A DNA stretch of 16,161 nt from a virus (lineage: Duplodnaviria > Heunggongvirae > Uroviricota > Caudoviricetes): positions 1 to 16,161 of IMG/VR virus record IMGVR_UViG_2737471845_000010; one strand, given 5' to 3'. The notes below the pieces were generated by a model that worked only from the letters and a program-made list of their open reading frames with translations, ran no database searches and had not been told where the DNA came from. Positions 1-16,161 of the stretch are shown in pieces. How positions within the stretch are numbered: position 1 is the first letter of the stretch; every line of letters starts with the position of its first letter. A program made the position numbers and the translations under genes.

Positions 1-655
1 CCGCCACACGTGCAAACAGCACCTGCAGTTTACTGTAATCGGCCTCATTCGGTAACTGCCACTGGCTGGTACCAAACCAGTGCGAAGCCATGTTTTTCTT
101 TCCGGTGGCTTCAGCTATCTGTTTTGACGTTATCCCCAGTGATTCACGCGCATCACGAAAGTAAGCAATCAGCGGGGCCATTACGTGCTGCTTAAGCTCG
201 CGCCCTTTTGCTGCATAACCGTCACTTTTGAGCTGGTATGACCCCTGATAATGTTCAGCAAACAGAATGCGCTCTGTTGCCGGGAAATATGCCCGTAAAC
301 TTTCCTTATTGCACCCGTTCCAGCGTCCGGACGGCTTCGCCCAGATAATGTGGTTCAACACATTAAAACGTTCACGCATCATGAGTTCGGTGTCAGATGC
401 CAGTCGATGACCACAGAACAGGTAAAGACTTCCGGCAGGCTTCAGTACCCGCCAGAACTGCGCCAGACACTGGTCCAGCCATTGCAGGTAATCATCATCG
501 CCCTTCCACTGGTTATCCCAGCCCTCAGGCTTCACTTTAAAGTATGGCGGGTCTGTGACTATCAGATCGACGGAGTTTTCCGGTAAGGTCCGGATAAATT
601 CCAGGCAATCAGCGTTGATTAACTCACAACTGGATATTTTTACAGTATTAGCCAT
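1..655 (-). CDS. DNA methyltransferase with DPPY motif (N6-adenine/N4-cytosine class, phage Dam-like); 3' end lies beyond the window start
   Basis: Reverse-strand reading frame open from ATG at 655 to the window edge with no stops (not in the ORF track because it has no in-window stop). Translation begins MANTVKISSCELINADCLEFIRTLPENSVDLIVTDPPYF, showing the DPPY catalytic motif and an upstream SAM-binding-like segment. Plus-strand ORFs 10..195 and 350..586 are antisense to it. Confidence 0.85.
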   Translation of the reverse strand, partial: MANTVKISSCELINADCLEFIRTLPENSVDLIVTDPPYFKVKPEGWDNQWKGDDDYLQWLDQCLAQFWRVLKPAGSLYLFCGHRLASDTELMMRERFNVLNHIIWAKPSGRWNGCNKESLRAYFPATERILFAEHYQGSYQLKSDGYAAKGRELKQHVMAPLIAYFRDARESLGITSKQIAEATGKKNMASHWFGTSQWQLPNEADYSKLQVLFARVA

Positions 656-805
656 AGATCAGTAAGCACTTCTCTGATAGGCTCATACCGCTTTTGCGCA
701 AAGCAGATGGGCCTGAGGTTTGCTTGTGATCCCAACGCATGAGCAGATGGCTGGCAGGTGCCGCTAACACCCACCAGCCGCCCATTACCACAAATTAAAA
801 AGCCT

Positions 806-1003
806 TCACTGCGGAAGGCGTCTGTAACAACCGAACTGATAATCTGCCAGACCCGCCATAACAAGCTGGGTCAGTATTAACTGGCAGCGTTCGCGTGAAA
901 GGTAAGTATTCTGCGCAATTTCCCCGACGGTCGCCGGTTCGGTGACGCTTAATTCATTAAACACCACTCTGGCGGTTTTGGTCATATCCTGCTGTTTTAG
1001 CAT
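806..1003 (-). CDS. small (65 aa) putative winged-helix DNA-binding protein, possibly FaeA/PapI-like
   Basis: ATG at 1003 preceded by AGGGA about 8 nt upstream; ends at TGA 806..808. The sequence (…ATVGEIAQNTYLSRERCQLILTQLVMAG…) resembles a small wHTH regulator. The longer tracked ORF up to 1225 is read-through of AT-rich non-coding DNA. Confidence 0.45.
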   Translation of the reverse strand: MLKQQDMTKTARVVFNELSVTEPATVGEIAQNTYLSRERCQLILTQLVMAGLADYQFGCYRRLPQ

Positions 1004-1228
1004 GTCTTTTTCCCTATTCCGGTTAACGTGACATACCAATAACTCTTGTCTGAAAAGCCAGCAAGCTGAAAAACCGGTATTCGTAACCACCAGCGCGTTT
1101 AACGTACTGCACCACTTTTCGGGCACAAAAAACCCGCCTAACGGCGAGCTTAAGCTGTGTAGCGAAGTAACCACTCTTAACACACTAAGCGAAAAAATGC
1201 GGACCGCGTTAGTGATTTTTAGCAAGTT

Positions 1229-1259
1229 TTGCTTTATTTTTCCTACGTACAGTAAAAAT
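1229..1259 (+). promoter_or_regulatory. candidate sigma70-type promoter for the 336-aa gene (TTGCTT, ~18 bp spacer, TAAAAA)
   Basis: AT-rich divergent intergenic region 1004..1320; hexamers read by eye only. Confidence 0.25.
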
Positions 1260-1320
1260 AAGAAATCAATTCCAGCCAGGCTGGCTGAGTTAACACAGGT
1301 CTTAGAATGAGGGAACTTCT

Positions 1321-2331
1321 TTGTACGAAATACATTACGACGTTGAGTCTGAACAGCAAGCTTTTGAATTACTTGAACGTTACCTAAACGGACAAGCTTT
1401 ACCCGAAAAAATTAGTTTCAATGGTTGGCCAAGTCTAACCATCAGGTTGACTGGTGAAAAATTCAACAAATCACTCACACCTTCAGTTATGAAAGGATTT
1501 GTTGAAATGCAATCGCAACTCAATAAGTCTTATGCGCTAGCAAAGTTCGGAACTCCTGATGTCCGCAGGCTAACAAAAGAAGAACTTGATGCTTTAGAAA
1601 TTGAAGTTACAGTAGAGCAAGGTTCATCTCTTGTAGAGATTAACATTGATGGCTTCCTAAGCAAGCTTACGCACGAACTGGTAGGGAAAATGAACGCCAC
1701 AGAGATTGTATTTACGGTTCTCGGTGCTGCCGTTATATGGGGCGGTGTAACCGTCTTCAAACGCTATCTGGATAACCGTAAAGATACTCGGTTGGCTGAA
1801 ATTGCTAAAGAAGGCGACAAAGAACACCTACGCGCAATGCAAGTGATGACACAGGAGGAAACAAAACGCCTCCAAATCATCTCAGAAATGGTGGCTAAAA
1901 AACCTCTACTCGACAATATGGATCGAATGTCTTATGACGCTAAAACCACCATGGTTAAATCTTTCGTGCGTTCAGATTCAGCAGAAATTGACGGTGTCAC
2001 AATAGATTCAGAAACGGCAAAAGAGCTAGTAACAAATGCTCGTCGGCGCTCAGTTGAAATGAGAATAGACGGTATATACCGTATCGAAGAAGTGAATAAT
2101 ACCGACCCCGAAAGCTTCAAAGTTAAGGTTCGAAAGGTCGATTCTGATCAACGTTTGACCTGCGTTGTTCAGGATATATTCCTTGATGAATCAGGGAACA
2201 AAGAAGCCTTACAGCGAGCTGAATGGGAAAGAAAGCCTGTGCATTTAAGCATCAATGCCAAACACATTGATGGAGATATCAAGTCCGCCGTAATTTTACA
2301 TGTGAAAGATGTTGAAGATAAGCCCGAGTAA
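1321..2331 (+). CDS. hypothetical 336-aa protein with one central transmembrane segment; AT-rich inserted accessory gene of unknown function
   Basis: Long ORF with TTG start preceded by GAGGGAA; no in-frame ATG further upstream. Central hydrophobic stretch IVFTVLGAAVIWGGVTVF followed by a basic patch KRYLDNRK. The DNA is visibly more AT-rich than the flanking prophage genes. Convergent with Q. No recognisable catalytic motif. Confidence 0.7.
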   Translation: MYEIHYDVESEQQAFELLERYLNGQALPEKISFNGWPSLTIRLTGEKFNKSLTPSVMKGFVEMQSQLNKSYALAKFGTPDVRRLTKEELDALEIEVTVEQGSSLVEINIDGFLSKLTHELVGKMNATEIVFTVLGAAVIWGGVTVFKRYLDNRKDTRLAEIAKEGDKEHLRAMQVMTQEETKRLQIISEMVAKKPLLDNMDRMSYDAKTTMVKSFVRSDSAEIDGVTIDSETAKELVTNARRRSVEMRIDGIYRIEEVNNTDPESFKVKVRKVDSDQRLTCVVQDIFLDESGNKEALQRAEWERKPVHLSINAKHIDGDIKSAVILHVKDVEDKPE

Positions 2332-2350
2332 TCGGGCTGTCTGGTTTCAA
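2321..2350. terminator. hairpin AGCCCGA-gtaa-TCGGGCT overlapping the stop codon of the 336-aa gene, between convergent genes
   Basis: Perfect 7-bp inverted repeat at 2321..2338 followed by a moderately T-containing tract; lies between the 1321..2331 gene and the 3' end of Q. Confidence 0.4.
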
Positions 2351-2727
2351 GATTCCACTTCGGCATCCATTTCTAAACTTACATCCAACATACTCAGGCA
2401 ACCGTCGATAAACCCTTCAGCCATCTGTATCTCTATACGTATCAATTTCTCATCCTTCCAACGCGCCTTTGCAATCTTGCGCTTGGATATCCTGTATAAA
2501 TAATGTGCCACAAGAAGCGAATGCTCATAAGGCCTTTTTTGCTTTAAACAAGCAAGACAACCTTCAATAATTAATGCGTCACTATCTGAACAAGCCAGGC
2601 GTTTCTTACTGGTATAGGGCAGAAGTCCCTTAAACCCGGCAGCTATAGGTGAATAGTCCACACCCGAGCTATCACTAGCCGCCCATGCCCCCCAACGCTC
2701 AAGAACCATCTGAATATCACGCGCCAT
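2347..2727 (-). CDS. late-gene antiterminator Q (phage 21/82/DLP12 QuuD-like family)
   Basis: Translation MARDIQMVLERWGAWAA…IAAGFKGLL… matches my recollection of Q-family proteins of about 127 aa. ATG at 2727 preceded by GGTGG. Sits immediately downstream of rusA, as in the DLP12-type nin region. Confidence 0.8.
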   Translation of the reverse strand: MARDIQMVLERWGAWAASDSSGVDYSPIAAGFKGLLPYTSKKRLACSDSDALIIEGCLACLKQKRPYEHSLLVAHYLYRISKRKIAKARWKDEKLIRIEIQMAEGFIDGCLSMLDVSLEMDAEVES

Positions 2728-3088
2728 CGTTACCACCTGTAATTTCGTAAATCTTCACACCCAGCCGACCACCAGGTACGCGCTGACCGCGCACAATATT
2801 AATTTCATCAAACTGCTCGTCGTCGATAAGCAACCCCGCATGTGTCAGTGCATCCAGTGGTGCTTTCAGAATATTGTCCAGGTCACGACGGCGCTTATCC
2901 GGTGGCTCTGCAGTAATTTTTATTGCCAGCCTTCCGGACAGATTTAATTTCAGCCGCTGCTGGCGAACAATGAGCGCCACATCACGGCGATAACGCTCAC
3001 CGGCTTTTGATACAAAATATGTGCTGCCACGACGTCGCCAGTAGGTGTTTACCGTCGGCGGGTAAGGCAAAACAAACTCTATACGCAT
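2717..3088 (-). CDS. rusA: RusA-family Holliday junction resolvase
   Basis: Translation MRIEFVLPYPPTVNTYWRRRG…DKRRRDLDNILKAPLDALTHAGLLIDDEQ… carries the RusA hallmark segments (PPS/TVN…Y; RRRDLDN; DAL…AG…DD). RBS AGAGG 7 nt upstream of ATG 3088. Confidence 0.9.
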   Translation of the reverse strand: MRIEFVLPYPPTVNTYWRRRGSTYFVSKAGERYRRDVALIVRQQRLKLNLSGRLAIKITAEPPDKRRRDLDNILKAPLDALTHAGLLIDDEQFDEINIVRGQRVPGGRLGVKIYEITGGNDGA

Positions 3089-3100
3089 CAGTAACCTCTT

Positions 3101-4150
3101 TTACCCGAGCACGCCGGTTGCAAAGGCGTGATCAAGAAAACGAAAAATTAAATCAACCTGGGAACCATGCTTTTCTTCGAACGCCAGCGGATCCGCATGA
3201 AGTTCGTTGTGATGTTCCCGGCATAACGGTAGCGTGAAAATATCGTGGGATTTTGTTCCCATTCCGCCCTGACCATGACCAATCAGGTGATGGGGATCGT
3301 CGGCTGGCTTACCACAGCACGCACACGGCTGTGTCTTTACCCAGCGTGTATATTTCTCATTTATCCAACGGCGACGTTTAGGTCGCTTCATGAAAGATTC
3401 CGGAGACTCCGGATCTACGGCAATGCTGACCACCGTCTTTTCCTGTGGTGCGTTCTGTTGCTGGTGGGCGTGAGGTGGTAGCGCAATATTTTTTGTGCGC
3501 TGCTTCAGTATGCTGGTAGCTGTCTGCTCTCCCGGTACGATGTCGCTTTCGCGGTACAGGGAACGGATTTTTTCCACCGGTAATCCCAGCGAACGGCGTA
3601 ATACTGCTTCCGGTAGCGCGTCCGCCACCTGATTGCAGACCGCCCACCAGGATAATTCAGCCAGCGATAACTCCCGCTCCTGCGTGCCATTCATTGCGTG
3701 ACGGATGACGTCAATCATCCAGGCTGTCAGATTTTGATGAGCAAGTTGCTCTAGCGATTCCGAGGTCTGGTCGCGCAGTTGATTGTCACAGTGCCAGCAC
3801 AACACCATCGCGCCGGTACCGTAACGATGTATGACGATTTCACTGTGATGATAGTCACCATGAGGCCACTGGCAGGATTTGACATGACGCAGGAGCCAGT
3901 CAGATAGTGCACCAGCGCCGCCAGCAGCACGAATCACCCGCTCATCGCTGAAAAATGGCAGTAATGATTTATCTTCCGCCAGCGGCTGGCGAACGGCAGG
4001 AACAGCTCCGGACGGCAGACCGCGCATGTTTTTCGGTTCCGGCTCCACCAGCACTCGAGGGCTATGAAATACCTGCATGGATTCACGGCCAGGTTTAAGG
4101 ACCACCAGCCCAAGTTCCGGTACATGAACAGGTCGAAGCAATACCCGCAC
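3101..4150 (-). CDS. nin-region protein with C-terminal HNH-like zinc-binding motif (DUF968-like)
   Basis: 349-codon ORF; GTG start at 4150 preceded by GGAGG and coupled to the upstream gene's stop. C-terminus contains CACCGKPADDPHHLIGHGQGGMGTKSHD…PLCREHHNELH, a Cys/His-rich HNH-type pattern. Confidence 0.75.
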   Translation of the reverse strand: MRVLLRPVHVPELGLVVLKPGRESMQVFHSPRVLVEPEPKNMRGLPSGAVPAVRQPLAEDKSLLPFFSDERVIRAAGGAGALSDWLLRHVKSCQWPHGDYHHSEIVIHRYGTGAMVLCWHCDNQLRDQTSESLEQLAHQNLTAWMIDVIRHAMNGTQERELSLAELSWWAVCNQVADALPEAVLRRSLGLPVEKIRSLYRESDIVPGEQTATSILKQRTKNIALPPHAHQQQNAPQEKTVVSIAVDPESPESFMKRPKRRRWINEKYTRWVKTQPCACCGKPADDPHHLIGHGQGGMGTKSHDIFTLPLCREHHNELHADPLAFEEKHGSQVDLIFRFLDHAFATGVLG

Positions 4151-4151
4151 G

Positions 4152-4424
4152 TTACCTCCAGATGCGTTGCTGGAATGTGCGGGACGGACGCGGTGGGCGT
4201 TCAGAGTAAGGCAGTCTGACTGAGATTATCCAGTGTCGGAAGTCGAGGCTGAGGTCTTTCTGAAACTCGTAACCACGTCTGCGGTAGTTCTGAATTAGCC
4301 ACTCTGCCTGCTCTTCAGTGCATGGATCATGCTGGAACCAGTCGGTTTTAAATGCGCGCGAACGCCGCCCGTATCTGCTGGCAGGGGCGGTATCAGAATT
4401 GTGTAATTTGGTGTGGTGCGCCAT
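4152..4424 (-). CDS. hypothetical nin-region protein (start uncertain; may extend to TTG at 4478)
   Basis: ORF ends one base before the start of the HNH-like gene, suggesting translational coupling. First ATG is at 4424 (MAHHTKLHN…); the tracked ORF starts at TTG 4478. Neither start has a strong RBS. Confidence 0.45.
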   Translation of the reverse strand: MAHHTKLHNSDTAPASRYGRRSRAFKTDWFQHDPCTEEQAEWLIQNYRRRGYEFQKDLSLDFRHWIISVRLPYSERPPRPSRTFQQRIWR

Positions 4425-4605
4425 CTGTTTTCTCTGCTGGCGCAGCAGGTGCCAGTTGTTCAGGCTGGCGTGCGGCAATATTGTCTCTGATTTCTGTTGT
4501 CGTCAACCGCTTCTGTGCTTCCTCTCTTGATGAGTGAAGCGATTAACTTTACTATTTACTTAACAGGTTTTTCCTGTACCACGATTCCCTATACAGGAGG
4601 CCAGC

Positions 4606-4896
4606 ATGAGTGACGACAAAAAAATTGAGTTCAGCACCAGCGATGTGCTGAATGCTTTGTTGCATCGCCAGCAGAACATGCAACACCTGGCAACACAAGA
4701 AAACGTTGATAACCTCCGTCGTGAGATGGATACACGCCTGAACGTTATAGATAAGCGCCTCGACAAAATGGAGCAAGAAACCGAAAGACGGTTCAACAAG
4801 CTGGAAACCAAGTTTGATCGACTCCAGTGGTTTATTGTTGCTGCAGCTCTGGCTCTCATCTTCAAGGATTACATCTTCAGAATTATTGGTGCTTAG
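4606..4896 (+). CDS. small coiled-coil protein with C-terminal membrane anchor (96 aa), opposite in orientation to the surrounding operon
   Basis: Strong RBS AGGAGG 6 nt upstream of ATG. Charged heptad-like N-terminal region followed by the hydrophobic C-terminal stretch WFIVAAALALIF. Immediately followed by a terminator. Confidence 0.7.
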   Translation: MSDDKKIEFSTSDVLNALLHRQQNMQHLATQENVDNLRREMDTRLNVIDKRLDKMEQETERRFNKLETKFDRLQWFIVAAALALIFKDYIFRIIGA

Positions 4897-4901
4897 TAAA
4901 T

Positions 4902-4929
4902 CCGGCCCCGTTTTCGGGGCTGTCTTTTC
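4902..4929 (+). terminator. rho-independent terminator downstream of the 4606..4896 gene
   Basis: GC stem (G)GCCCCG-tttt-CGGGGC(C) followed by a T-rich tract (tgtcttttc). Confidence 0.6.
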
Positions 4930-5089
4930 ACATCTGCATCAGACTTTCCACCAACTTTTTATTGCCAGCTCCTGAAATCTGATCTACCTTATGCGCGTCA
5001 GAACGGCGCAATGCGCTCGCCTGTGATACGTTTACTTGTCATTGGTGGCAACAGATAACGGCAATTGTTGTTTCTGTTTGTTTCCTTCA

Positions 5090-5124
5090 AAAACCCCGGA
5101 CCGTCAATCCGGGGTTTTTGTTTG
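5090..5124. terminator. bidirectional rho-independent terminator (tR-like) ending the minus-strand early block
   Basis: AAAAACCCCGGA-ccgtcaa-TCCGGGGTTTTTG: perfect 7-bp GC-rich stem flanked by an A-run on one side and a T-run on the other, so it reads as an intrinsic terminator on both strands. Confidence 0.65.
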
Positions 5125-5204
5125 TTATCCCCAGCGGCAAATCGAATACACCATCAGCGCCACCGCCATCGCAATTCCTGCCGTTGTGAATGCTTCAGGC
5201 CAGG

Positions 5205-5567
5205 TCATCGTAAAATATCCTCCACGCTTATCAGTCCGTTTCGCTCCAGGTAGTCCATCACCTTATCCGGCAGTTTGCAGTCCGGCTTCGCTTTCCTCAG
5301 TTGCCAGGTTAACTGCTTTACCTGCATGGTTAACTCGTCGACCAGACGCTGATACCCCACTGGTTTGTATTCATAAAATTTACCAACTGGCGCTGCTGCC
5401 AGCGATTGCAGTGCAATTTCCAGAACAGCAATATCCATCTTATATGCGCGAATGAGGTCATGGTCGATTGTACCTGGTATGCACAGTCTCTGTGATTCAA
5501 TAGTCTCCTCTGCGTGGGCTATTAACTGCTCTTTGGTAAACCGTTCTTCTTTGGTCAAAGTCGCCAT
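5205..5567 (-). CDS. hypothetical early protein (120 aa)
   Basis: ATG at 5567 overlaps the stop of the upstream small gene; GGAAGAG upstream. No recognised motif. Confidence 0.65.
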
Positions 5568-5568
5568 T

Positions 5569-5742
5569 TTACTCTTCCACTTCGTCTTTTATTTCGTAAA
5601 TTGAGTAATTGCAGTGATTAAAGAAAACATCAATTGCCTCGTTTTCTATTTCCTCAGGAGTCGCGTCATCATCCACTTCAAATACATCTTCACGCACGCC
5701 ACCAACAATCCTCGTTTCGATAACTATTTTGAATTTTCGCAT
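5569..5742 (-). CDS. small acidic hypothetical protein (57 aa), below the ORF-track size cutoff
   Basis: Hand translation [65 protein letters not shown] upstream of ATG 5742; fills the gap between neighbouring genes. Confidence 0.5.
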
Positions 5743-5832
5743 TGTCTTACCACCATTTCTGGCAGTCTCCTGATGTTCTGAGGGTGCAGAAATCCCTCCG
5801 GTTAAGGATTTTATTTTCGATAATAATATTGG

Positions 5833-6189
5833 TTATTCTGGTCTGGTTTTTGTCGCCCTGCGTATCCGCGCTTTCACATTGCGCTCAATCTGAATTAGCT
5901 TTTCTATATTTTTACGTCTTTCCCGTTCCTCCTGACGCAATTGTTTTACATCATCTGCCAGTCTGGTTTCTCTTTTCGCCACAGAGAGCATCCAGTCAAA
6001 TGGCTCCACAACTGCACCGCAGATTTTACAACGGACATGACGCTCTTTTTCATCAACCCTGACAGAGGCGTGATGGCAATATGGTTTCTCCGATGGCTCA
6101 TAAAGAAAATTAACCTGATTACGTGGGTCATCCTCTTTTACCGGAAATAAAACAATATTACTTAACTCATCTTCTGGTTTTATTTCCAC
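5833..6189 (-). CDS. hypothetical protein with zinc-ribbon-like motif (CHH…C-x2-C)
   Basis: GTG start at 6189 preceded by AAAGGAGA; the longer tracked ORF (to 6264) would overlap the upstream gene. Contains PYCHHASVRVDEKERHVRCKICGAV. Confidence 0.6.
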   Translation of the reverse strand: MEIKPEDELSNIVLFPVKEDDPRNQVNFLYEPSEKPYCHHASVRVDEKERHVRCKICGAVVEPFDWMLSVAKRETRLADDVKQLRQEERERRKNIEKLIQIERNVKARIRRATKTRPE

Positions 6190-6190
6190 G

Positions 6191-6520
6191 TCACTCTCCT
6201 TTGATGCGAATACCTGCAACACGCAGTGCATGCTCCAAATCAGCCAGATAAAGCCAGCGCCCATGCTCTTTGGGCATCATGACATATTGCTCATCGGCAT
6301 TTATCGGATGACCCCTTCGAAGGTCATAGCAAGTCGGTAAATGCACTGCCCTTGCTTCCAGCTCTGCAATGCGTTTATCTCTGGCTTCCAGTTCGTCCAG
6401 TAACGCCAGCACAACCTGCGGTGTGACTTTCATGCGAAACGCCAGCAGTTTCTGAGGTGTGGACACTGTTTTTATTGCCTCTGCCACATCACGCAACGCC
6501 TGGTTGTTAATCTGATTCAC
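6191..6520 (-). CDS. hypothetical early protein with coiled-coil segment (109 aa)
   Basis: GTG start at 6520 with GAGGTG RBS; start overlaps the stop of the upstream gene (GTGA). LLDELEARDKRIAELEA heptad-like segment. Confidence 0.65.
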   Translation of the reverse strand: MNQINNQALRDVAEAIKTVSTPQKLLAFRMKVTPQVVLALLDELEARDKRIAELEARAVHLPTCYDLRRGHPINADEQYVMMPKEHGRWLYLADLEHALRVAGIRIKGE

Positions 6521-6831
6521 TGCGTCACCTCACGATTCCTCAACCAGATACAAACCGGTCCATCCTCGGTGTCATGAATGGAGCCAATAAACCAGCCCTC
6601 ACCCTCTGGTCGTTCAGGTTCCCATGCGGAAATATCGGGACCATCTGCATCCGGGTTAAAATCATCTTCATCCATACTGCGAATAGTCCACTGAAGATTA
6701 TTTGCCTTCATCCAGGCGTTAAATTCTTCCGTCGAAATATACTCCCGGCCATCACAAAATTTTTCATATTCAGGATGCGTCCAGCAGCCATATTCATCAC
6801 GTTCTACCGGCAGTTCTTTGATTTCAATCAT
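6517..6831 (-). CDS. hypothetical acidic early protein (104 aa)
   Basis: Internal ATG at 6831 preceded by GGAG at suitable spacing; the first ATG of the tracked ORF (6858) has no RBS. Confidence 0.6.
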   Translation of the reverse strand: MIEIKELPVERDEYGCWTHPEYEKFCDGREYISTEEFNAWMKANNLQWTIRSMDEDDFNPDADGPDISAWEPERPEGEGWFIGSIHDTEDGPVCIWLRNREVTQ

Positions 6832-6844
6832 AACATTAACTCCA

Positions 6845-7021
6845 TTAAGATAATGCAAAACAAATTAACCACACCACGACAACCGATGCTATTAACACCC
6901 TGATTGCAAACAGCGGGCTGATATGTCGAAAAGGATTTTCCCAGATAATAAAAGCCGCTGCCAGAAATGCACTGATAAGTAAAACAATAACAAACAGCTC
7001 AATTTTGATTATCCAGAACAT
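6845..7021 (-). CDS. small hydrophobic membrane protein (58 aa)
   Basis: Two predicted hydrophobic helices (IIKIELFVIVLLISAFLAAAFII and LFAIRVLIASVVVVWLICFAL); start overlaps the upstream stop. Confidence 0.45.
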   Translation of the reverse strand: MFWIIKIELFVIVLLISAFLAAAFIIWENPFRHISPLFAIRVLIASVVVVWLICFALS

Positions 7022-7023
7022 AT

Positions 7024-7320
7024 TCACTGCATCGCCTTCTGTAAAATAACCGCATGCCCCAGCTTCTCCGCCAGCGCCAGTTCTGCCTTAGCACCCGCCG
7101 ACCGCTGCCAGCCATTCAGCATGTAAATCGCATCCACGCAACGTATCATCGCCATGCAGATATCCATGTACTGCGACTGAGTCAGTCCGTCCGGAAGTAC
7201 TGCCGGGTTTAAGACGGTATGCCCTTCCCGTTTCAGTTCCTCTTCTGCCTTGTGGAACGCCTCACGGTTGAAATTTTTATACCCGGTCATCGGACCGGCG
7301 ATATAAACCCTCACCCTCAC
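7024..7320 (-). CDS. DUF4406-like protein (nucleoside 2-deoxyribosyltransferase-like fold)
   Basis: GTG start with strong AGGAGGTG RBS, overlapping the upstream stop. N-terminal RVYIAGPMTG…FN…AF motif typical of this family. Confidence 0.7.
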   Translation of the reverse strand: MRVRVYIAGPMTGYKNFNREAFHKAEEELKREGHTVLNPAVLPDGLTQSQYMDICMAMIRCVDAIYMLNGWQRSAGAKAELALAEKLGHAVILQKAMQ

Positions 7321-7709
7321 TCAATCACCTCCTGAAAATTACCCCGATAGAACGCCAGTACACGTTGCATTGATTCGCTGTTACGGCATTCCCGGCAAAT
7401 TATGTTCATGTCTCTGTCGTAGCGACGGATTTCACCATCAGGTAACTTCCGGACCAGTGCCGGGTCAGCTTTCTTCGGAGTTTTACACCACGCCTGATAC
7501 GCCTGTTCTGATACAAAAACACCGTGTTTACCGGATATGTACAAATCACCACAAGCAACCACATCCACAAGACAACGTCTGACCGTATGCCAGCCCGCCC
7601 CCGTTGCCCTCTCCAGTTGCGACATCGTCATGCGTTTGTTCCTGTGTATCAGCCCGATAATTCGCGCCTTCAGTTCTTCCCGCTGTTCGGGTGTAAAAAC
7701 GCTTGCCAT
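7317..7709 (-). CDS. hypothetical protein with predicted HTH segment (130 aa)
   Basis: AGGAGG RBS upstream of ATG 7709; segment MTMSQLERATGAGWHTVRRCL resembles a helix-turn-helix. Confidence 0.7.
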   Translation of the reverse strand: MASVFTPEQREELKARIIGLIHRNKRMTMSQLERATGAGWHTVRRCLVDVVACGDLYISGKHGVFVSEQAYQAWCKTPKKADPALVRKLPDGEIRRYDRDMNIICRECRNSESMQRVLAFYRGNFQEVIE

Positions 7710-7723
7710 GAGTCCTCCTGAAA

Positions 7724-8470
7724 TTACTTCACAACCCTTAAATGGCTGACATTTGAACGCCAGCTCTCCCAGTTAAAATTCACCCAGCGACCACCGTTCA
7801 TGGTCATGCGGTCCATCACGCGCTCGCCAAGCAGCGTATTCATTGCCGTATGGTTCAGGTTCGTCAGCATCCCGACGCTGTGCATCGAGGCTGTTCTGCG
7901 ATCGACTATCTGGTTCAGTGTGACCTGTTCGTTACGCGTATCCCGCTGCATACCAATTTCATCCAGGACAAGCAGGTCAACTTCACACAACCCCTGCAAA
8001 AATTTTTCGCCCGAGTTTTTGTTGTCGTAGTTGCCGTGTAACGCCAGCATCACATCCGCCACCGTCACCACAATCACGCTGCGACCTTTCGCCAGAAGAT
8101 GGTTGCCAATGGCTGCTGCCAGATGATTCTTTCCGGTACCCGGCTTACCGCTGAACACGAAATTTGTGCATCCGGTCATCATTTCTTCCGCGATGGATTT
8201 TGCCTGGCTCAGCGCGTGGCGTTGGCCATCGTTCTTCACCTGGTAATTCGCAAACGAACACTTCTGGTGCAACAGTTGGATACCGGAACGCTTCATAATT
8301 TTCTCCACCCGGATCTGGCGATTCTGGCGGTTAATTTCCTCACTACGCTTTCGCCCTTCTGCAAGCTGCCACTCTCGCCACTCGTCCACTGTCCGGTACG
8401 GCGCGGTTACATGCTGCGGGGCCAGCTTACGGATACGCTCAAGAACACCACCTGCCGCAATATTTTTCAT
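7724..8470 (-). CDS. DnaC/IstB-like AAA+ replication protein (helicase loader; Rac YdaV-like)
   Basis: Walker A motif GKPGTGKNHLAAAIG and Walker B-like LLVLDEIG; positioned immediately downstream of the replication initiator gene. Confidence 0.9.
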   Translation of the reverse strand: MKNIAAGGVLERIRKLAPQHVTAPYRTVDEWREWQLAEGRKRSEEINRQNRQIRVEKIMKRSGIQLLHQKCSFANYQVKNDGQRHALSQAKSIAEEMMTGCTNFVFSGKPGTGKNHLAAAIGNHLLAKGRSVIVVTVADVMLALHGNYDNKNSGEKFLQGLCEVDLLVLDEIGMQRDTRNEQVTLNQIVDRRTASMHSVGMLTNLNHTAMNTLLGERVMDRMTMNGGRWVNFNWESWRSNVSHLRVVK

Positions 8471-8476
8471 AACCCG

Positions 8477-9424
8477 TTACCCCCTGAATCCCGGCGGAAT
8501 TTCGGTATCCGGTTCAGAAATGTGATTCACACAACGCTGTACAGGCGAACGCCCCAGGCGGATGACCAGTTCGTCCCATTTTTCACGAAGCTTTGACGGG
8601 CTCATGACGTTTCTTACCCAGAATGGATCCCGTTGTACCCGACTGAACATTTCGCAAATTTGCCTGTGAGTTCTGCCATCCAGCACCCGCATTGTGCGCA
8701 CGTCATTGGCCCATGCTGTCCAGTTGGGTTCTTTCGGTCGCGTAATCTCGCCATCATCGCTGGCAGCCTGTTCGTAAAGACTCACGATTCGCCCCCAGAT
8801 CCACTGCGCACACGTCAAATCTTCCTGGCTGCCCCACTGGCGTTTTTTCGCACTGAACACAACCGCGTCAGGATGTCGGGTTAAAAAATCCTGTTCAGCC
8901 GTCTCCTCGTCCGGTTGCGAAGCTTCCGGACGAAAAGATCTTTTATCTGACGGATCAGGTTTTAATACTGACGGATCGGGGCCAACCATCGCCCCCCTAT
9001 CCGGCTGTTTTTTATCAATGGTTGATCCATCAAAATTTGAGGGGTCAACCGTTGAGGGGGCAATATTTGACGGGTCATTTTTTGCCTGGCTAATTTTTCT
9101 TTTCGGTTTATATGCCTCACGCGCCGCCGCTGCTGCTGCTTCGAGTTTTTCCACATTAAGACGGTAGATATTGCTTTCATTACGCCCACCGACCTTACGT
9201 TCCTCCTTCGTCAGCCAGCCGTTCTTTTCCAGTTCCGCTATCGCCGCTTTAACCGTTGATTCACTCTTTGCCCCAATCTGACGACGAATGGTCTCCACTG
9301 CAGGCCATGACACACCTTCGTCATTGCTGTAATCTGCAAGGCGAGCCATTACTGCCACCCTGGATAAGATCATGCCGGTGAAGGCACACCCTTCCCAGAC
9401 AAGACCATGAAGCTTGCTGCTCAT
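8477..9424 (-). CDS. phage replication initiation protein (lambda O-like functional analogue) with internal iteron origin
   Basis: GGAG RBS upstream of ATG 9424. N-terminal HTH-like segment; central repetitive DPSN/DPSV/DGST protein segment encoded by the iterons; followed by the DnaC-like gene. Confidence 0.85.
   Translation of the reverse strand: MSSKLHGLVWEGCAFTGMILSRVAVMARLADYSNDEGVSWPAVETIRRQIGAKSESTVKAAIAELEKNGWLTKEERKVGGRNESNIYRLNVEKLEAAAAAAREAYKPKRKISQAKNDPSNIAPSTVDPSNFDGSTIDKKQPDRGAMVGPDPSVLKPDPSDKRSFRPEASQPDEETAEQDFLTRHPDAVVFSAKKRQWGSQEDLTCAQWIWGRIVSLYEQAASDDGEITRPKEPNWTAWANDVRTMRVLDGRTHRQICEMFSRVQRDPFWVRNVMSPSKLREKWDELVIRLGRSPVQRCVNHISEPDTEIPPGFRG
8946..9115. repeat. candidate origin of replication: about five iterons (consensus TGA(C/G)GG(A/G)TC) plus adjacent AT-rich tract, inside the initiator gene
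   Basis: Copies at approximately 8948..8956, 8969..8977, 9038..9046, 9052..9060 and 9068..9076 (TGACGGATC, TGACGGATC, TGAGGGGTC, TGAGGGGGC, TGACGGGTC), followed by the AT-rich stretch 9077..9115. Architecture parallels lambda ori within gene O. Confidence 0.6.
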
Positions 9425-9447
9425 AAAAAACTCCGAACACCGTGCTT

Positions 9448-9873
9448 TTAGTGCATCACCACAGCATTTCCTGCCGGGCCACCACGATTCATCTGATTGA
9501 AACCGGCGATTGCCACTGCGACAAAATCATCAGCGTCTCTCACCAGTCGTTCCCGCGTCTCCACCAACTCCCGAAAATAGACTGAACTGTGGCTGCGCAT
9601 CCGGGCCACCAGCAGAGGTGGCATTGCTTTTTCGATAGCCGGTAACAACGCCTGAATTTTTTTAACCGCATCAGGAGTGTCTTTCTCTACCCAGCGGAAA
9701 ATTTTCTGGGTATTGCGAGCCAGGGCTTCCGGATGGCTATCGTCATACAGTTCAGGAAACGTCATACCCAACTCAAAATAAGCCTGGGTTATTCCAGCTG
9801 CTGGAACTTTTTCACCGTCCGGATGCGCCCAGACATTCATCGCCATGCGGATGTGTTCATGCTTGATTTTCAT
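9448..9873 (-). CDS. YdaT-like (CII-position) regulatory protein
   Basis: Begins MKIKHEHI, as I recall for the Rac YdaT family. ATG overlaps the stop of the Cro-like gene (ATGA). Position corresponds to cII in lambdoid layouts. Confidence 0.7.
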   Translation of the reverse strand: MKIKHEHIRMAMNVWAHPDGEKVPAAGITQAYFELGMTFPELYDDSHPEALARNTQKIFRWVEKDTPDAVKKIQALLPAIEKAMPPLLVARMRSHSSVYFRELVETRERLVRDADDFVAVAIAGFNQMNRGGPAGNAVVMH

Positions 9874-10085
9874 GAATCATTCTTTCCTTCGTTCGAGGTG
9901 CTATCCTGCTTCTTGTAAAGTTCTGGGTTGTATTTCAATTCACCGTTAGTAATTTCATCCAGCTCCATTGCTCGAAGTTTGGGAATAACTGCTTTCCACC
10001 GCACAACAGCCACATGTGAAATTCCAAGAGCCTCAGCTACTAGTCGCTTTTTTTTGAAATAGCGCAGAACATCATCTTTGAACAT
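9870..10085 (-). CDS. Cro-like repressor (DicC/YdaS-like small HTH protein)
   Basis: AGGAGAG RBS upstream of ATG 10085. 71 aa with HTH (RLVAEALGISHVAVVRWKA). Divergent from the CI-like repressor gene across an operator-bearing intergenic region. Confidence 0.8.
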   Translation of the reverse strand: MFKDDVLRYFKKKRLVAEALGISHVAVVRWKAVIPKLRAMELDEITNGELKYNPELYKKQDSTSNEGKNDS

Positions 10086-10114
10086 AAAACTCTCCTGTTA
10101 TTTCGAGCAGGAGG

Positions 10115-10176
10115 GTAACAATAGTTACATAGCAATGTCAACCATAGCAACATCACTTGGTAGTAACATTGGTTAC
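10115..10176. promoter_or_regulatory. OR-like operator region: two GTAAC-N4-GTTAC palindromes between the divergent cro-like and repressor genes
   Basis: GTAACaataGTTAC at 10115..10128 and GTAACattgGTTAC at 10163..10176, the latter directly abutting the repressor ATG. A TTGACA hexamer is present on the minus strand in this interval. Confidence 0.6.
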
Positions 10177-10851
10177 ATGAAAAACACTATCAGCGAACGT
10201 ATTCGGAATCGTCGAAAAGACGTTGGATTAACCCAACAGCAGGTTGCGAAAGCAATCGGCATATCTCGTGTATCCGTAACAAAATGGGAAAATGGCTCTT
10301 CAAAACCTGACGGTGAGAATTTACATCTACTGTCAAAATTGCTTTCCAAATCTCCTGAATGGATTCTTTATGGAAAGGACGGTCACGATAAAACCGATGA
10401 TCTGCGTCTGAATCAGTACCTTTACATTAGTGACAACATCGCCCGGTTGCCCGTTTTAACGTGGGAACAGGCTGGTTATTGGGATATGAGTTGCCCAGTA
10501 ACCGAGATTCCTGGTATTAAGAATTGGGTTGATGTCATGACAAAAACCGCTGAAAACTCTTTTTTATTGCATGTTGAGGGAGATGCGATGACAAACTCTA
10601 ACGGCCTCCCAACCATCCCCGACGGATCTACCGTGCTGATCACACCATGCTCAAGTAACATTAGAGAACTGGCGGGGAAAATAATCTTAATCCAATTGGA
10701 AGGAACGCCAAACGTAACACTAAAAAAAGTTGCGATTGACGGACCAAACATCTATCTGTTGTCACTGAATCCGCTTTACAAACCCATCGAACTGAATGGC
10801 GGTTACACCATTAAAGGTAAAGTTTCACAAATACATCAATACTTAGATTGA
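10177..10851 (+). CDS. CI-like prophage repressor (N-terminal XRE-type HTH plus C-terminal S24 LexA-like domain)
   Basis: HTH segment LTQQQVAKAIGISRVSVTKWENG. C-terminal domain aligns by eye with lambda CI (…EGDAMT…; …VTLKKV…). Start chosen at ATG 10177; the tracked ORF begins at TTG 10078 and would overlap the operators and the cro RBS. Confidence 0.85.
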   Translation: MKNTISERIRNRRKDVGLTQQQVAKAIGISRVSVTKWENGSSKPDGENLHLLSKLLSKSPEWILYGKDGHDKTDDLRLNQYLYISDNIARLPVLTWEQAGYWDMSCPVTEIPGIKNWVDVMTKTAENSFLLHVEGDAMTNSNGLPTIPDGSTVLITPCSSNIRELAGKIILIQLEGTPNVTLKKVAIDGPNIYLLSLNPLYKPIELNGGYTIKGKVSQIHQYLD

Positions 10852-10855
10852 GTCA

Positions 10856-10883
10856 GAACCCGCATTCATTGCGGGTTTTTTAT
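10856..10883 (+). terminator. rho-independent terminator after the repressor gene
   Basis: AACCCGCA-ttcatt-GCGGGTT stem-loop followed by TTTTTT. Confidence 0.7.
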
Positions 10884-10912
10884 GCCCTCAAACGTACCTT
10901 TTGCAACATCGT

Positions 10913-10939
10913 ATTGACTCATGTGGTAACTCTTGTTAC
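10913..10939 (+). promoter_or_regulatory. OL/PL-like element: TTGACT hexamer followed by the third operator palindrome GGTAACtcttGTTACC
   Basis: Same GTAAC-N4-GTTAC half-sites as the two OR sites (10925..10938), located at the head of the plus-strand early-left operon. The -10 element is not clear. Confidence 0.5.
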
Positions 10940-11259
10940 CTTAACAACATACCAACCCACTCCGCCCCACAGAATGCAGGGCAATACTTCGAGTTACCAG
11001 GCAGTGGTCAGGGGGTAAGTAGCCAGCCCGAGGCGTAAGAACATGACGGCAGGGTTCAACTTTAACTATGCAGCAGGTTTTTGTTCCGCTACCCCGGCGT
11101 TAAGGGGAAACAGAGGATTTCTCAGTGGGCGAAGTCAAACATCAGAATGGAAGGCATCCTGGGCTCTGCAAAGAAGCAGCAATGGCGCTTTATATTGACA
11201 TCAGCGCCATTGCCGGACAGCTAAGAATTATCAGGGCGGTAACTAAGCGGTATGCGCCT

Positions 11260-11460
11260 TTACTTCAGAAAGTCTCTTGTGAGTGCACCGAAGATATTGT
11301 CAACGATTTCGTCATCGAACTGCGAAGACTCATCTTCAGTTACAAGGTGACCACAATTTTTGCAGATGGCTCCCGCGAAACTGTCAGAGCCCTGCGGCTT
11401 AAAGGATGTGTCAAAGACTTCGCCACCACATTCTGGGCAAGAAAACTTGATTGTATTCAT
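11260..11460 (-). CDS. small zinc-ribbon protein (66 aa), antisense to the early-left operon
   Basis: Two CxxC pairs (CPECGG … CKNCGH) with an acidic C-terminus; GAGAGGAAA RBS about 6 nt upstream of ATG. The overlapping plus-strand ORF 11125..11481 is the alternative reading and contains several rare AGA/AGG codons. Confidence 0.45.
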   Translation of the reverse strand: MNTIKFSCPECGGEVFDTSFKPQGSDSFAGAICKNCGHLVTEDESSQFDDEIVDNIFGALTRDFLK

Positions 11461-11552
11461 AACCAATTTCCTCTCGAGTAACAGACCCCTCAGAGGATAC
11501 CACCTCGCCTGACGTGGTTAAAAGCAGGCAACGCTAACCACAAGGAGCCGAC

Positions 11553-11750
11553 ATGCAGAAACGAGAACCCGTCATCATCGCGCCAGACTATACCGATGAT
11601 GAACTTTATGAGTGGATGCGCCAGAAAATTAATGCAGCGCAGGATTTGAAATGGGCCAATGAAGCTAGGGCTAAGCAGGCTGAAAATCTGTCCGCTCTGG
11701 AGCAGGATATCACCAGGCTGGAAAAAGCAGCGGCATTAAGCATTGCCTGA
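11553..11750 (+). CDS. small hypothetical early-left protein (65 aa)
   Basis: RBS AAGGAG 6 nt upstream of ATG; coiled-coil-like C-terminus. Confidence 0.65.
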   Translation: MQKREPVIIAPDYTDDELYEWMRQKINAAQDLKWANEARAKQAENLSALEQDITRLEKAAALSIA

Positions 11751-11793
11751 ATGATTACATACCCACGTTAATAGCTAACCAACGAGGCTAATA

Positions 11794-12201
11794 ATGGAAT
11801 TTAAAGATTTACCAAAAGAAATCCAGACAATTGCTGCAACGACTCTCGGTGATAGTCTGGTGAAAATTGACCCGGCATACACCAAAAAAGAAACCATCGA
11901 TAATATGGTTCGTAATGTGCGCAATGCTTTTTCTGGGCTATATGGTTCTGATAATCAAAAGCAGGAAAGCGATGTTAATAAACGGGTAATTTCTGTTTGC
12001 GTGAATGGCCATGTTCTTTCATCAATCAAAACAGAAACGGCGACAGTCTTCGATTGCCTTTGCATTGTACAGAGCCTTGTTGATGCCCTGTTTCGTTCAG
12101 TGAATTTAGAAAATGACGCAAATCTGCGAGGGCGCACAATAGCACATCCATATGCACATACTTTAGGCTCTGTGGATATCAAAGATCCCACAAATCTTTA
12201 A
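11794..12201 (+). CDS. hypothetical early-left protein (135 aa)
   Basis: RBS-like ACGAGG upstream of ATG; 3' end overlaps the convergent minus-strand gene by about 23 bp. Confidence 0.6.
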   Translation: MEFKDLPKEIQTIAATTLGDSLVKIDPAYTKKETIDNMVRNVRNAFSGLYGSDNQKQESDVNKRVISVCVNGHVLSSIKTETATVFDCLCIVQSLVDALFRSVNLENDANLRGRTIAHPYAHTLGSVDIKDPTNL

Positions 12202-12412
12202 TGAAATAGTTAACGCGAATTGTACTTGCTCTTTCAGTTGCTTTCAGAATACGCGTTGAAACTGCTGGCGGTAATTTGGTATTCCATTTATTAAAATCAT
12301 GCCCGGGAAAGTACTCTTCGAAAATACTTTTAACTGCAGACTCGCCTATTGAAATGCTGCTTACCATGCGATTTTGATAAAGGCATTTAGCAATAAGAGT
12401 TGATTTTAACAT
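12179..12412 (-). CDS. hypothetical 77-aa protein encoded opposite to the early-left operon
   Basis: Strong RBS AGGAGGG 4 nt upstream of ATG 12412; convergent 3' overlap with the 11794..12201 gene. Confidence 0.55.
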   Translation of the reverse strand: MLKSTLIAKCLYQNRMVSSISIGESAVKSIFEEYFPGHDFNKWNTKLPPAVSTRILKATERASTIRVNYFIKDLWDL

Positions 12413-12747
12413 TCACCCTCCTGAAGGTTGGTAATTAAGGAGTTCTCCACGGGTGGGGTGGAGTGCGTGCGCCGGACACGGGTGAGCATCCGGCACTGAC
12501 AGTTTACTGAAAGGATATTTCTCTGAAAAGTCAGAGCATAACGCGAAAGCGCACGGCGAGGTTGCTGGTTCATAGATAGCCTGTCGTTAAATTTTCGTCG
12601 ACCGTGCGCTTCCGGTTGTGGCACCCCGCGAAATGGCGCGGCGGTAAGTATGGCGGGGTTATCCTTACCCCCACTGGTGGCACCGGGTTGTCAGGTTGAC
12701 CATACGCCTGAGTGACAACCCCGCCACAACATCTCCATGTTGAGGCT

Positions 12748-12802
12748 TGTGTGAGACCTTTGGCGGCATCAGTTTAATTGCTGGCTGATGTCCGCCCTTT
12801 TT
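12748..12802 (+). ncRNA. dicF: DicF-like small RNA (cell-division inhibitor sRNA family) ending in an intrinsic terminator
   Basis: Sequence …CCTTTGGCGGCATCAGTTTAATTGCTGGCTGATGTCCGCCCTTTTT closely resembles my recollection of E. coli DicF (GGCGG…AUCAGUUU…CCGCCCUUUUU). Long imperfect hairpin GGCGGCATCAG / CTGATGTCCGCC plus T-run. Located directly upstream of a dicB homologue, as in Qin. 5' boundary is approximate. Confidence 0.55.
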
Positions 12803-12985
12803 AAAGTGAATTTTGCGATGCGGTGAATGCGGCTAAGCGCACGCGGAACAGTTAAAAAGGCCAGTTGACTTCCGTATTGGTTCTTATGGGTGGGTTCTCT
12901 GTATCCGGCGTTAATTGTTAACTGGTTAACGTCACCTGGAGGCACCAGGCACCGTATCACAAAATTCATTGTTGAGGACGCGATA

Positions 12986-13174
12986 ATGGAAACGTTATTA
13001 CCAAACGTTAATACGTCTGAAGGTTGTTTTGAAATCGGTGTCAGAATCAGTAACCCTGTATTTACTGAAGATGCCATTAATAAGAGAAAACACGAACGGG
13101 AGCTATTAAATCAAATATGCATTGTTTCAATGCTGGCCCGTTTACGCCTGATGCAAAAAGGACGCTGCCAATGA
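12986..13174 (+). CDS. dicB: DicB-like cell division inhibitor (62 aa)
   Basis: Translation METLLPNVNTSEGCFEIGVRISNPVFTEDAINKRKHERELLNQICIVSMLARLRLMQKGRCQ is near-identical to the E. coli DicB sequence as I recall it. GAGGA RBS; the tracked ORF's upstream extension is not needed. Confidence 0.8.
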   Translation: METLLPNVNTSEGCFEIGVRISNPVFTEDAINKRKHERELLNQICIVSMLARLRLMQKGRCQ

Positions 13175-13374
13175 ATACAGCATTTGCACTCGTTCTGACA
13201 GTTTTTCTTAATACAGGCGAACCAGTCGATCTTGTTATTGGTATACATGACTCAATGAAAGAATGCATGGCTGCCGCAGCGGAACAGAAAATTCCCGGCA
13301 ACTGTTATCCGGTTGATAAAGTTATTCGCATGGACAATAACGAAATCCCGGCAGGACTTAAAACAGCACCGTAA
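13171..13374 (+). CDS. ydfD: YdfD-like small membrane/lysis protein (67 aa)
   Basis: ATG overlaps the dicB stop (ATGA). N-terminal hydrophobic helix AFALVLTVFL, then …CMAAAAEQKIPGNCYPVDKVI…, resembling Qin YdfD from memory. Same gene order as Qin dicB-ydfD. Confidence 0.6.
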   Translation: MNTAFALVLTVFLNTGEPVDLVIGIHDSMKECMAAAAEQKIPGNCYPVDKVIRMDNNEIPAGLKTAP

Positions 13375-13454
13375 TTAATATCCGGTTTCATTTTTATATG
13401 CCAGCAATGGCAGGGATTTGTTCACCATTAAATCTGTAATGAGGTTAAAACAAA

Positions 13455-15917: not shown

Positions 15918-15983
15918 TGTTCACCCCTGATCGCCGTCCCCGAATTATATTGGCGGCGGTCATGCTGTAAGGCACGTGACCAC

Positions 15984-16161
15984 ATGTACGAATTAACTCT
16001 ATCGCCAGCAGAGATTCAAGAGATCACGAAATACGAGCGATACACAAAACAGCAACACCAGTTAAGGCTGCACGGTATCCCATTTGTAATCGGTCCTAAA
16101 AACGAACCAATAGTTCTTCGCAGGGATATTCCACACGGACTGACTACGATGCCAAAAGCAC
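15984..16161 (+). CDS. hypothetical protein, 5' portion only (continues beyond window end)
   Basis: ATG at 15984 opens a frame with no stop to the window end (MYELTLSPAEIQEITKYERYTKQQHQ…); weak RBS. Confidence 0.4.
   Translation, partial: MYELTLSPAEIQEITKYERYTKQQHQLRLHGIPFVIGPKNEPIVLRRDIPHGLTTMPKA

Follow-up and report, generated by a model that had tools for sequence, protein, structure and literature searches.

A Q-dependent late promoter is predicted beyond a cargo insertion in an Escherichia coli lambdoid prophage

Where does late transcription begin in a lambdoid prophage whose Q antiterminator gene runs directly into a convergent gene? The question is raised by a stretch of 16,161 nucleotides (nt), here called the window, which corresponds to positions 1 to 16,161 of the IMG/VR virus record IMGVR_UViG_2737471845_000010 (Caudoviricetes). 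The prophage is of the E. coli lambdoid type, with its early-right and late genes on the minus strand of the window. Its Q gene (2347..2727, minus) encodes an antiterminator of 126 amino acids belonging to the Q21/933W family, and is followed by a gene on the opposite strand, here termed cargo, that encodes a protein of 336 amino acids (1321..2331, plus). It is argued here that the late promoter, PR', is very probably located at 1220..1127 on the minus strand, directly beyond a cargo insertion of ~1.13 kb and 1.14 kb from Q. The assignment draws on the observed homology of this block to a mapped promoter, on its position, on its conservation and on the pairing of its palindrome type with a type of Q. 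Judged by its sequence, the window contains a Q21/933W-family cassette of the ordinary kind, whose late promoter has very probably been displaced and not lost.

No room for a promoter directly after Q

The absence of a late promoter directly 3' of Q was confirmed. Only 15 nt separate the stop codon of Q from that of the convergent gene, and a hairpin with a 7-bp stem (2321..2338) lies between the two genes and overlaps the cargo stop codon, so that no promoter fits at this point. A weak T-tail accompanies the hairpin on the plus strand only; the surrounding 41-nt stretch folds at -16.2 kcal/mol (z -3.95) on the plus strand and at -13.2 kcal/mol (z -4.67) on the minus strand. A consensus scan of the minus strand disclosed no sigma-70-like site between 500 and 2900, and comparison with Rfam gave no match at the gathering thresholds for the whole window and chance-level matches only for 600..2800. 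The initial annotation of this DNA had stated that neither a late promoter nor a qut site is obvious immediately after Q, which is correct as regards position only. It had also named two regions to the left of the insertion in which the promoter might be sought. The scan revealed nothing promoter-like in one of these, 656..805, which can be set aside; the other, 1004..1320, contains the PR'-type module described below.

The predicted PR' module

On the minus strand, positions 1220..1127 read AAAAA-T-CACTAAC-GCGGTCCGC-ATTTTTTCGCT-TAGTGT-GTTAAGAGTGG-TTACTTCGCTACACAGCTTAAG-CTCGCCGTTAGGCGGG-TTTTTT. The block opens with an A-tract (1216..1220; -45..-41 relative to the predicted start) that occupies the position of a proximal UP element, forms the upstream edge of conservation and may act as an UP element. 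This is followed by the palindrome GCGGTCCGC (1199..1207; -32..-24), a candidate Q-binding element (QBE), and by TAGTGT (1182..1187), the putative -10 hexamer of PR', which aligns with TATCAT of phage 933W and of the Sakai prophage Sp5. The core pattern GCGGTCCGC-N11-TANNNT-GTTAAGAGTGG is present only once in the window, at 1171..1207 on the minus strand, and was recovered from none of 200 shuffled sequences with up to three mismatches permitted. The palindrome is situated 1139 nt from the stop codon of Q, and the textbook adjacency of the cassette to Q is not found in the window.

The homologous promoter in Sp5 has been mapped. In 933W PR' and in the identical Sp5 stretch the order of elements is TTTACGATCGTAAA-AATCTGCA-TATCAT-GATAAGAGTGGTTACATTGCCACGCAG...CCCGCCGATGCGCGGG-TTTTTTT or, in short form, TTTACGATCGTAAA-N8-TATCAT-GATAAGAGTGGTTAC..., followed by a hairpin and a T-run, and the block in the window aligns with it from the palindrome through the T-run. 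In GenBank, TTTACG...TATCAT of 933W is annotated as putative pR'. Differential RNA sequencing (dRNA-seq) by Sy et al. placed the primary PR' start at a distance of 258 nt from the downstream 3' end of tR' that Term-seq had defined (PMC7547250), and an RNase E cut, GU|AUU, was reported at +173 of the Sakai Sp5 PR' RNA (PMC7547250). The length of the RNA and the position of the cut both put the Sp5 +1 at A746 of locus L128, the A of GATAAG[A]GTGG, which lies 7 nt after TATCAT. By homology, therefore, transcription in the window is predicted to start at A1175 on the minus strand, the A of GTTAAG[A]GTGG.

Downstream of the predicted start, a conserved initial transcribed region (+2..+17; 1159..1174) would form the first leader hairpin. 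An intrinsic terminator, the first candidate for tR' (1127..1148), lies shortly 3' of the promoter and consists of a GC-rich hairpin of 6 bp (CTCGCC-GTTA-GGCGGG, +28..+43) and of six T residues (+44..+49). In both SfV and 933W the annotation of the homologous hairpin is that of a putative rho-independent terminator. When folded, the leader of 51 nt (-18.4 kcal/mol, z -3.27) forms the terminator hairpin and, at its 5' end, a small hairpin. A terminated leader RNA of about 48 nt is predicted, a length that is usual for the family because the T-run of the PR' terminator in phage 21 likewise ends near +46. A second terminator-like hairpin with a T-run (819..794, minus; -9.4 kcal/mol, z -1.65) overlaps the stop codon of a small gene coding for a winged helix-turn-helix (wHTH)-like protein, and the methyltransferase gene and all that lies beyond would therefore need its read-through.

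Conservation of the module across loci

Viral contigs were scanned for GCGGTCCGC-N17-GTTAAGAGTGG, which yielded at least 120 loci, and 78 distinct modules were compared; all counts for this GCGGTCCGC set, here and below, hold among the matches listed. At positions that were not fixed by the search pattern, A-11 and T-7 are found in 78/78 modules and T-12 in 64/78 (82%). The bases of the A-tract are A in 91-96% of the modules, T-36 and A-23 are likewise conserved, and conservation ends at -45, columns upstream of -46 being not conserved. In the transcribed part, positions +6, +9, +10, +13, +15, +16 and +17 are each conserved in at least 95% of the modules, and the initial transcribed stretch is common to the window, 933W, DLP12 and phiP27. 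Columns conserved in this way are the signature of a putative -10 hexamer, and its spacing from the mapped start of the homologue is the expected one.

A second sample was gathered via the Q protein alone and is unbiased as to DNA. The module was present in 77/77 of the loci with at least 1.5 kb of downstream sequence, the palindrome being exact in 73 and altered by one base in four. Among the 72 full-length cases GTTAAGAGTGG is intact in 54, and the remainder are point variants. A megablast search with the 106-nt module against E. coli genomes returned 99 genomes and is too insensitive with so short a query to gauge prevalence. As a side observation, the four bases that follow GCGGTCCGCA (-22..-19; 1194..1197 in the window) are mostly a run of T or a run of A, the T:A split among the 78 modules being 39:39 at -22 and at -21, 47:31 at -20 and 46:32 at -19.

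Palindrome types and Q types

The Q gene of the window is intact. In a Pfam search its product matched PF06530 (Phage_antitermQ) with an E value of 4e-50 over profile positions 2-118 of 118; it is 46% identical to Q933W and 48% identical to QuuD of DLP12. Similarity to Q21 is marginal (E 0.04), and the Q21 structure 6P18 is a weak match. PF06530 was named the Q21/Q933W family by Yin et al. (bioRxiv 10.1101/651190; PMC9388147). An assignment of PF06530 and DLP12 QuuD to the phage 82 type was accordingly dropped, as was the designation of 190 bp after quuD as an 82-like PR', the DLP12 module being located after nmpC.

The type of palindrome and the type of Q go together without exception. Modules with GCGGTCCGC and an upstream Q are accompanied by a window-type Q in 110/110 loci, and modules with TTTACGATCGTAAA by a 933W/QuuD-type Q in 117/117 loci. 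The two palindromes share the same centre, at about -28, and further palindromes reside at the equivalent position in other phages: TTTACGTACGTAAA in DLP12, in the module after nmpC (L006 5697..5775), and GGAATTCC in phiP27, in the module after a GIY-YIG gene (L449 about 2075..1990). The two Q classes resemble each other in the N-terminal half and diverge where they align with the Q21 helix-turn-helix. Residues S93-K94-H95 of Q21 contact DNA (PMC6606751), and in the alignment their counterparts are an invariant S-K-R in one class of Q and T-F-M in the other. By correlation with Q type and with these class-specific residues in the DNA-contact segment, GCGGTCCGC is likely to be the Q-binding element. 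In phage 21 the element recognized by Q21 also lies between -35 and -10, but is a direct repeat nearer to the -10 (PMC6606751).

These sequence relationships suggest that there are at least four Q/PR' specificity classes with a common transcribed leader. Q and its binding site appear to have been swapped as a unit, apart from the leader and the downstream genes. The homology of window 640..1182 ends at the -10 hexamer in phiP27, which carries a Q-like gene and a different palindrome, and homology to SfV, whose Q has 250 amino acids, ends at the terminator. The GCGGTCCGC variant of the palindrome is undescribed as far as literature searches show. More speculatively, promoters of the GCGGTCCGC type lack a -35 element and carry the palindrome in its place, and Q, which has a fold like that of sigma region 4, might help initiation there. 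The palindrome, when read on the plus strand together with the A-tract complement (1196..1210), resembles a small terminator, a hairpin followed by AGTGATTTTT, and this likeness is possibly a by-product of the palindrome.

A cargo insertion between Q and the predicted PR'

The interval 1221..2346 comprises the 336-amino acid gene together with its own upstream region (1221..1320) and constitutes a cargo module of ~1.13 kb on the plus strand. It is regarded as an insertion because a BLAST search of phage genomes retrieved insert-free Stx2 phages, such as LC567830, in which the block homologous to the window from 1220 down to 640 starts at the Q stop codon. In these insert-free relatives the stop codon of Q is joined directly to position -45 of the module. 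Within the cargo upstream region, just before PR', lies a 7-bp hairpin with a weak T-tail (1272..1288, minus), which could block early antisense transcripts through the cargo from reaching the late region.

Such insertions are common. In the GCGGTCCGC set, Q abuts the module in 36/110 loci, with a gap of -18 to 16 nt between Q stop codon and palindrome, and inserts of 832..1762 nt are present in 74/110. These are cassettes of one to three genes, nearly all on the opposite strand, and belong to about a dozen unrelated families. Some of the cargo matches PADLOC or Pfam entries typical of defence: PDC-S20 KAP NTPase, PDC-S42, TIR-TM, SMEK, NYN and an SDH-type protease. In the 933W-type set, 48/117 loci contain inserts, mostly ORF6N genes on the same strand, and lc/nmpC-like porins on the opposite strand. 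The ORF6N cargo of 933W-type loci, for instance in strain A8 (L002 7788..8065), has a promoter-like site of its own that was recognized by eye, TTGACC-17 nt-TATATT; in ORF6N loci the promoter-like site and terminator directly after Q are a decoy, and the real PR' is found beyond the cargo.

The 336-amino acid protein has homologues of 270-351 amino acids in the same slot in 18 loci of the GCGGTCCGC set. It contains a central transmembrane helix, and its only match is phrog_6191, itself of no assigned function; Pfam, PADLOC and NCBIfam contain no match to it. Literature searches, which were not exhaustive, uncovered nothing specific on a hotspot between Q and PR'. It can be proposed, tentatively and with more doubt than conviction, that the junction of Q stop codon and PR' A-tract is a dedicated and widely used cargo slot in lambdoid prophages with a Q21/933W-family antiterminator, and that the phrog_6191 protein may be the product of an uncharacterised defence or exclusion gene.

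Proposed mode of action

The following sequence of events is envisaged, in which promoter activity, binding by Q, pausing and the efficiency of termination are all predicted. The insertion would have entered precisely at the junction of the Q stop codon with the upstream A-tract of the promoter. If phages 21, lambda and 933W are a guide, the RNA polymerase of the host would start constitutively at PR' and terminate early. Q, once made, would bind the palindrome and load onto a polymerase that is still near the promoter. The polymerase loaded with Q would then read through the first terminator and through that at 819..794, and transcription would reach the small wHTH-like gene, the methyltransferase gene and the lysis and morphogenesis genes past the end of the window. 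The initial annotation had anticipated that the small gene and the methyltransferase gene would be the first Q-dependent transcripts, and the position of the module directly upstream of 806..1003 and 1..655 bears this out.

Several observations weigh against placing a working PR' at 1220..1127. A -35 hexamer is not recognisable: at a spacer of 18 nt the window has TAACGC, which by our own count agrees with the consensus at 1/6 positions. The consensus scan leaves the promoter unflagged; it misses it because the -35 is absent, as the 933W-type PR', used as a control, is detected by the same scan. The first terminator is not flagged in the window by the scanning tool either. Its T-run has only six T residues, three of which are able to pair into the stem, and the terminator may be leaky, since its Sp5 homologue is evidently passed by some polymerases that continue to +258; the Sakai Sp5 terminator at +258 lies beyond the homologous hairpin (PMC7547250). 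The sequence GTTAAGAGTGG was fixed by the search pattern in two of the three collection scans, and its conservation is supported by the Q-based sample and by homology-based alignments. Finally, the transcribed region holds no convincing conserved -10-like pause element. At +6..+12 an A at hexamer position 2 and a T at position 6 are not kept. The sequence AAGAGT at -3..+3 (1173..1178) does have A at position 2 and T at position 6, as sigma region 2 needs; in the Q-retrieved sample T(+3) is kept in every in-register variant and A(-2) with two exceptions; one row is out of register. As a guess, AAGAGT is put forward as a candidate sigma-dependent pause element, in a position that resembles that of TAAGCT in phage 21.

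Alternative explanations

Displacement or loss of the late operon, of the kind met with in cryptic prophages, had been considered in the initial annotation. The module at 1127..1220 would then be an inert remnant, and the insertion would have uncoupled Q from the late genes. The missing -35 and the silence of the scan over the module are compatible with decay, and DLP12, which is alike in layout, is a defective prophage. Loss is nevertheless improbable: Q is full length, all invariant positions of the module are intact and the palindrome is exact. Furthermore, the order of Q, cargo and PR' is shared by 74/110 and 48/117 viral contigs of the two sets and by the complete phage records of cdtI and phiP27, and even in DLP12 the lysis operon is described as being under the control of a Q-type antiterminator (PMC7918800). 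No late structural genes are visible in the window, which stops inside the methyltransferase gene, the late lysis and morphogenesis genes lying beyond it; a near-identical prophage in E. coli PapRG-04-4 (L001) does possess lysis, terminase and portal genes.

A second possibility is that TAnnnT is a sigma-dependent pause element, in which case the promoter would be situated upstream, in the A-tract (AAAAAT), and GCGGTCCGC would be transcribed. A palindrome with a -10-like hexamer ~11 nt further on does resemble the spacing of QBE and pause element, AAAAAT is present in the A-tract of many loci, and a UUAAG/CUUAA stem could form in the RNA only with an upstream start. This arrangement was rejected once the Sp5 start had been derived, as in Sp5/933W the start derived from the mapped data follows the corresponding hexamer by 7 nt. 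Moreover, 59% of the modules retain the T of AAAAAT, against 100% for A-11 and T-7, and the location of the Q21 element between -35 and -10 (PMC6606751) is that which the favoured model gives. The pause-element reading is accordingly very improbable.

Least credible of all, and close to negligible, is the notion that the main route to the late genes is read-through from the early rightward operon, via Q and across the cargo in antisense, and not a promoter of their own. The minus strand lacks a T-run at the hairpin that follows Q, and early transcripts may enter the insertion. Yet the hairpin with a weak T-tail at 1288..1272 on the minus strand precedes the module, there would be no explanation for why a promoter-like module is so strictly conserved and paired with Q type, and the family members that have been studied start late transcription at PR' (PMC7547250, PMC9388147).

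Neighbouring genes

To the right of Q lie a RusA gene (2717..3088) and, beyond it, a DUF968 gene (3101..4150). On the other side of PR', the small wHTH-like gene (806..1003, minus; 65 amino acids) is the predicted first late gene; it is also found 3' of the module in Stx2 phages, phiP27 and SfV. The predicted second late gene (1..655, minus) encodes a DNA methyltransferase, identified by PF01555 (3e-17) and by the annotation of L001, and is truncated by the edge of the window. The PapRG-04-4 prophage mentioned above is the sole near-identical relative in the E. coli collection, with 97.4% identity over 4.2 kb, and its downstream genes specify tRNA, holins, lysin, terminase and portal.

Implications

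With PR' at 1220..1127 the apparent anomaly disappears, and what remains is a normal Q-dependent late switch whose promoter would have been moved 1.1 kb by cargo. Two findings had been named beforehand as refuting the claim of a missing promoter, namely a PR' or qut homologue located elsewhere, for example where the insertion ends, and evidence that this Q family works on a distant site; both were encountered. The locus also provides a signature for finding PR': an A-tract, a type-specific palindrome, TAnnnT and then G(T/A)TAAGAGTGG. Regions of pR' devoid of a reference site have been reported (PMC6266700), and in a prophage with the same layout of TrmB-like gene and methylase and a different Q, neither PR' nor qut was identifiable (PMC9729726). 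The signature helps to place PR' in E. coli prophages and Stx phages that were reported without a recognisable PR' or qut. In some phages (e.g. LC567830) such modules precede stx genes, and for this reason the palindrome specificity classes could influence how the toxin is expressed. New accessory or defence genes of prophages can also usefully be sought in the recurrent slot between Q and PR'.

Comparison with known systems

Lambda Q and its PR' (6S RNA) display the same general logic: the promoter is constitutive, termination comes early and the binding site for Q is located within the promoter. In contrast, lambda Q belongs to an unrelated family (PF03589) with no sequence similarity, and its cassette follows directly after Q. 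Phage 21 (6P18, 6JNX) is closer, as its Q is a member of PF06530 and the Q-binding element is part of the promoter, upstream of the -10. The element itself differs: it consists not of a palindrome at -32..-24 but of two direct repeats TGAGCA, in which the base pairs at -21 and -13 are the key ones. PR'21 also has a consensus -35 (TTGACA) and, in our own reading, a -10-like TAAGCT at +2..+7.

The StxS locus of 933W/Sp5 is similar in most respects. Q is of the same family, the palindrome is centred near -28, TAnnnT and G(A/T)TAAGAGTGGTTAC are present, and the GC hairpin with its T-run is found at the same distance as in the window. The palindrome is TTTACGATCGTAAA in 933W and GCGGTCCGC in the window, and 933W has a usable -35 (TTTACG), whereas the window has none. 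In 933W the module is located directly after Q, the mapped terminated RNA is 258 nt long, and tRNAs and stx follow; in the window, 1.14 kb separate the module from Q, and the next genes are those for the small wHTH-like protein and the methyltransferase.

DLP12 of E. coli K-12 shares the Q family and the order of Q, convergent cargo, PR' module and late genes. This order is quuD, nmpC (with IS5), PR' and essD-rrrD-rzpD, and essD begins 169 nt after the predicted start. The module reads TTTACGTACGTAAA-N8-TATGCT-GTTAAGAGTGG..., followed by a hairpin and a T-run. Unlike the window, DLP12 has as cargo a porin gene broken by IS5, a distance of 2.9 kb from Q to PR', another type of palindrome and lysis genes directly after the module, and it is a defective prophage. 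The Stx2e phage phiP27 has a Q-like gene, cargo, PR' module, small gene, methyltransferase gene and tRNAs in common with the prophage studied here and is 94% identical to window 640..1182. It deviates in its palindrome, GGAATTCC, and in its cargo, a GIY-YIG nuclease gene that shares the orientation of Q. In phage cdtI the PR' module comes after two reverse-oriented genes. The premise that Q always acts directly downstream of its own gene, on which the initial annotation was built, is too strict for this family, for which action of Q on a promoter one to three kb away is established. Cargo lies between Q and PR' in DLP12, in phiP27, in cdtI and in about half of all loci sampled, and adjacency of the cassette to Q is not a defining feature of the family.

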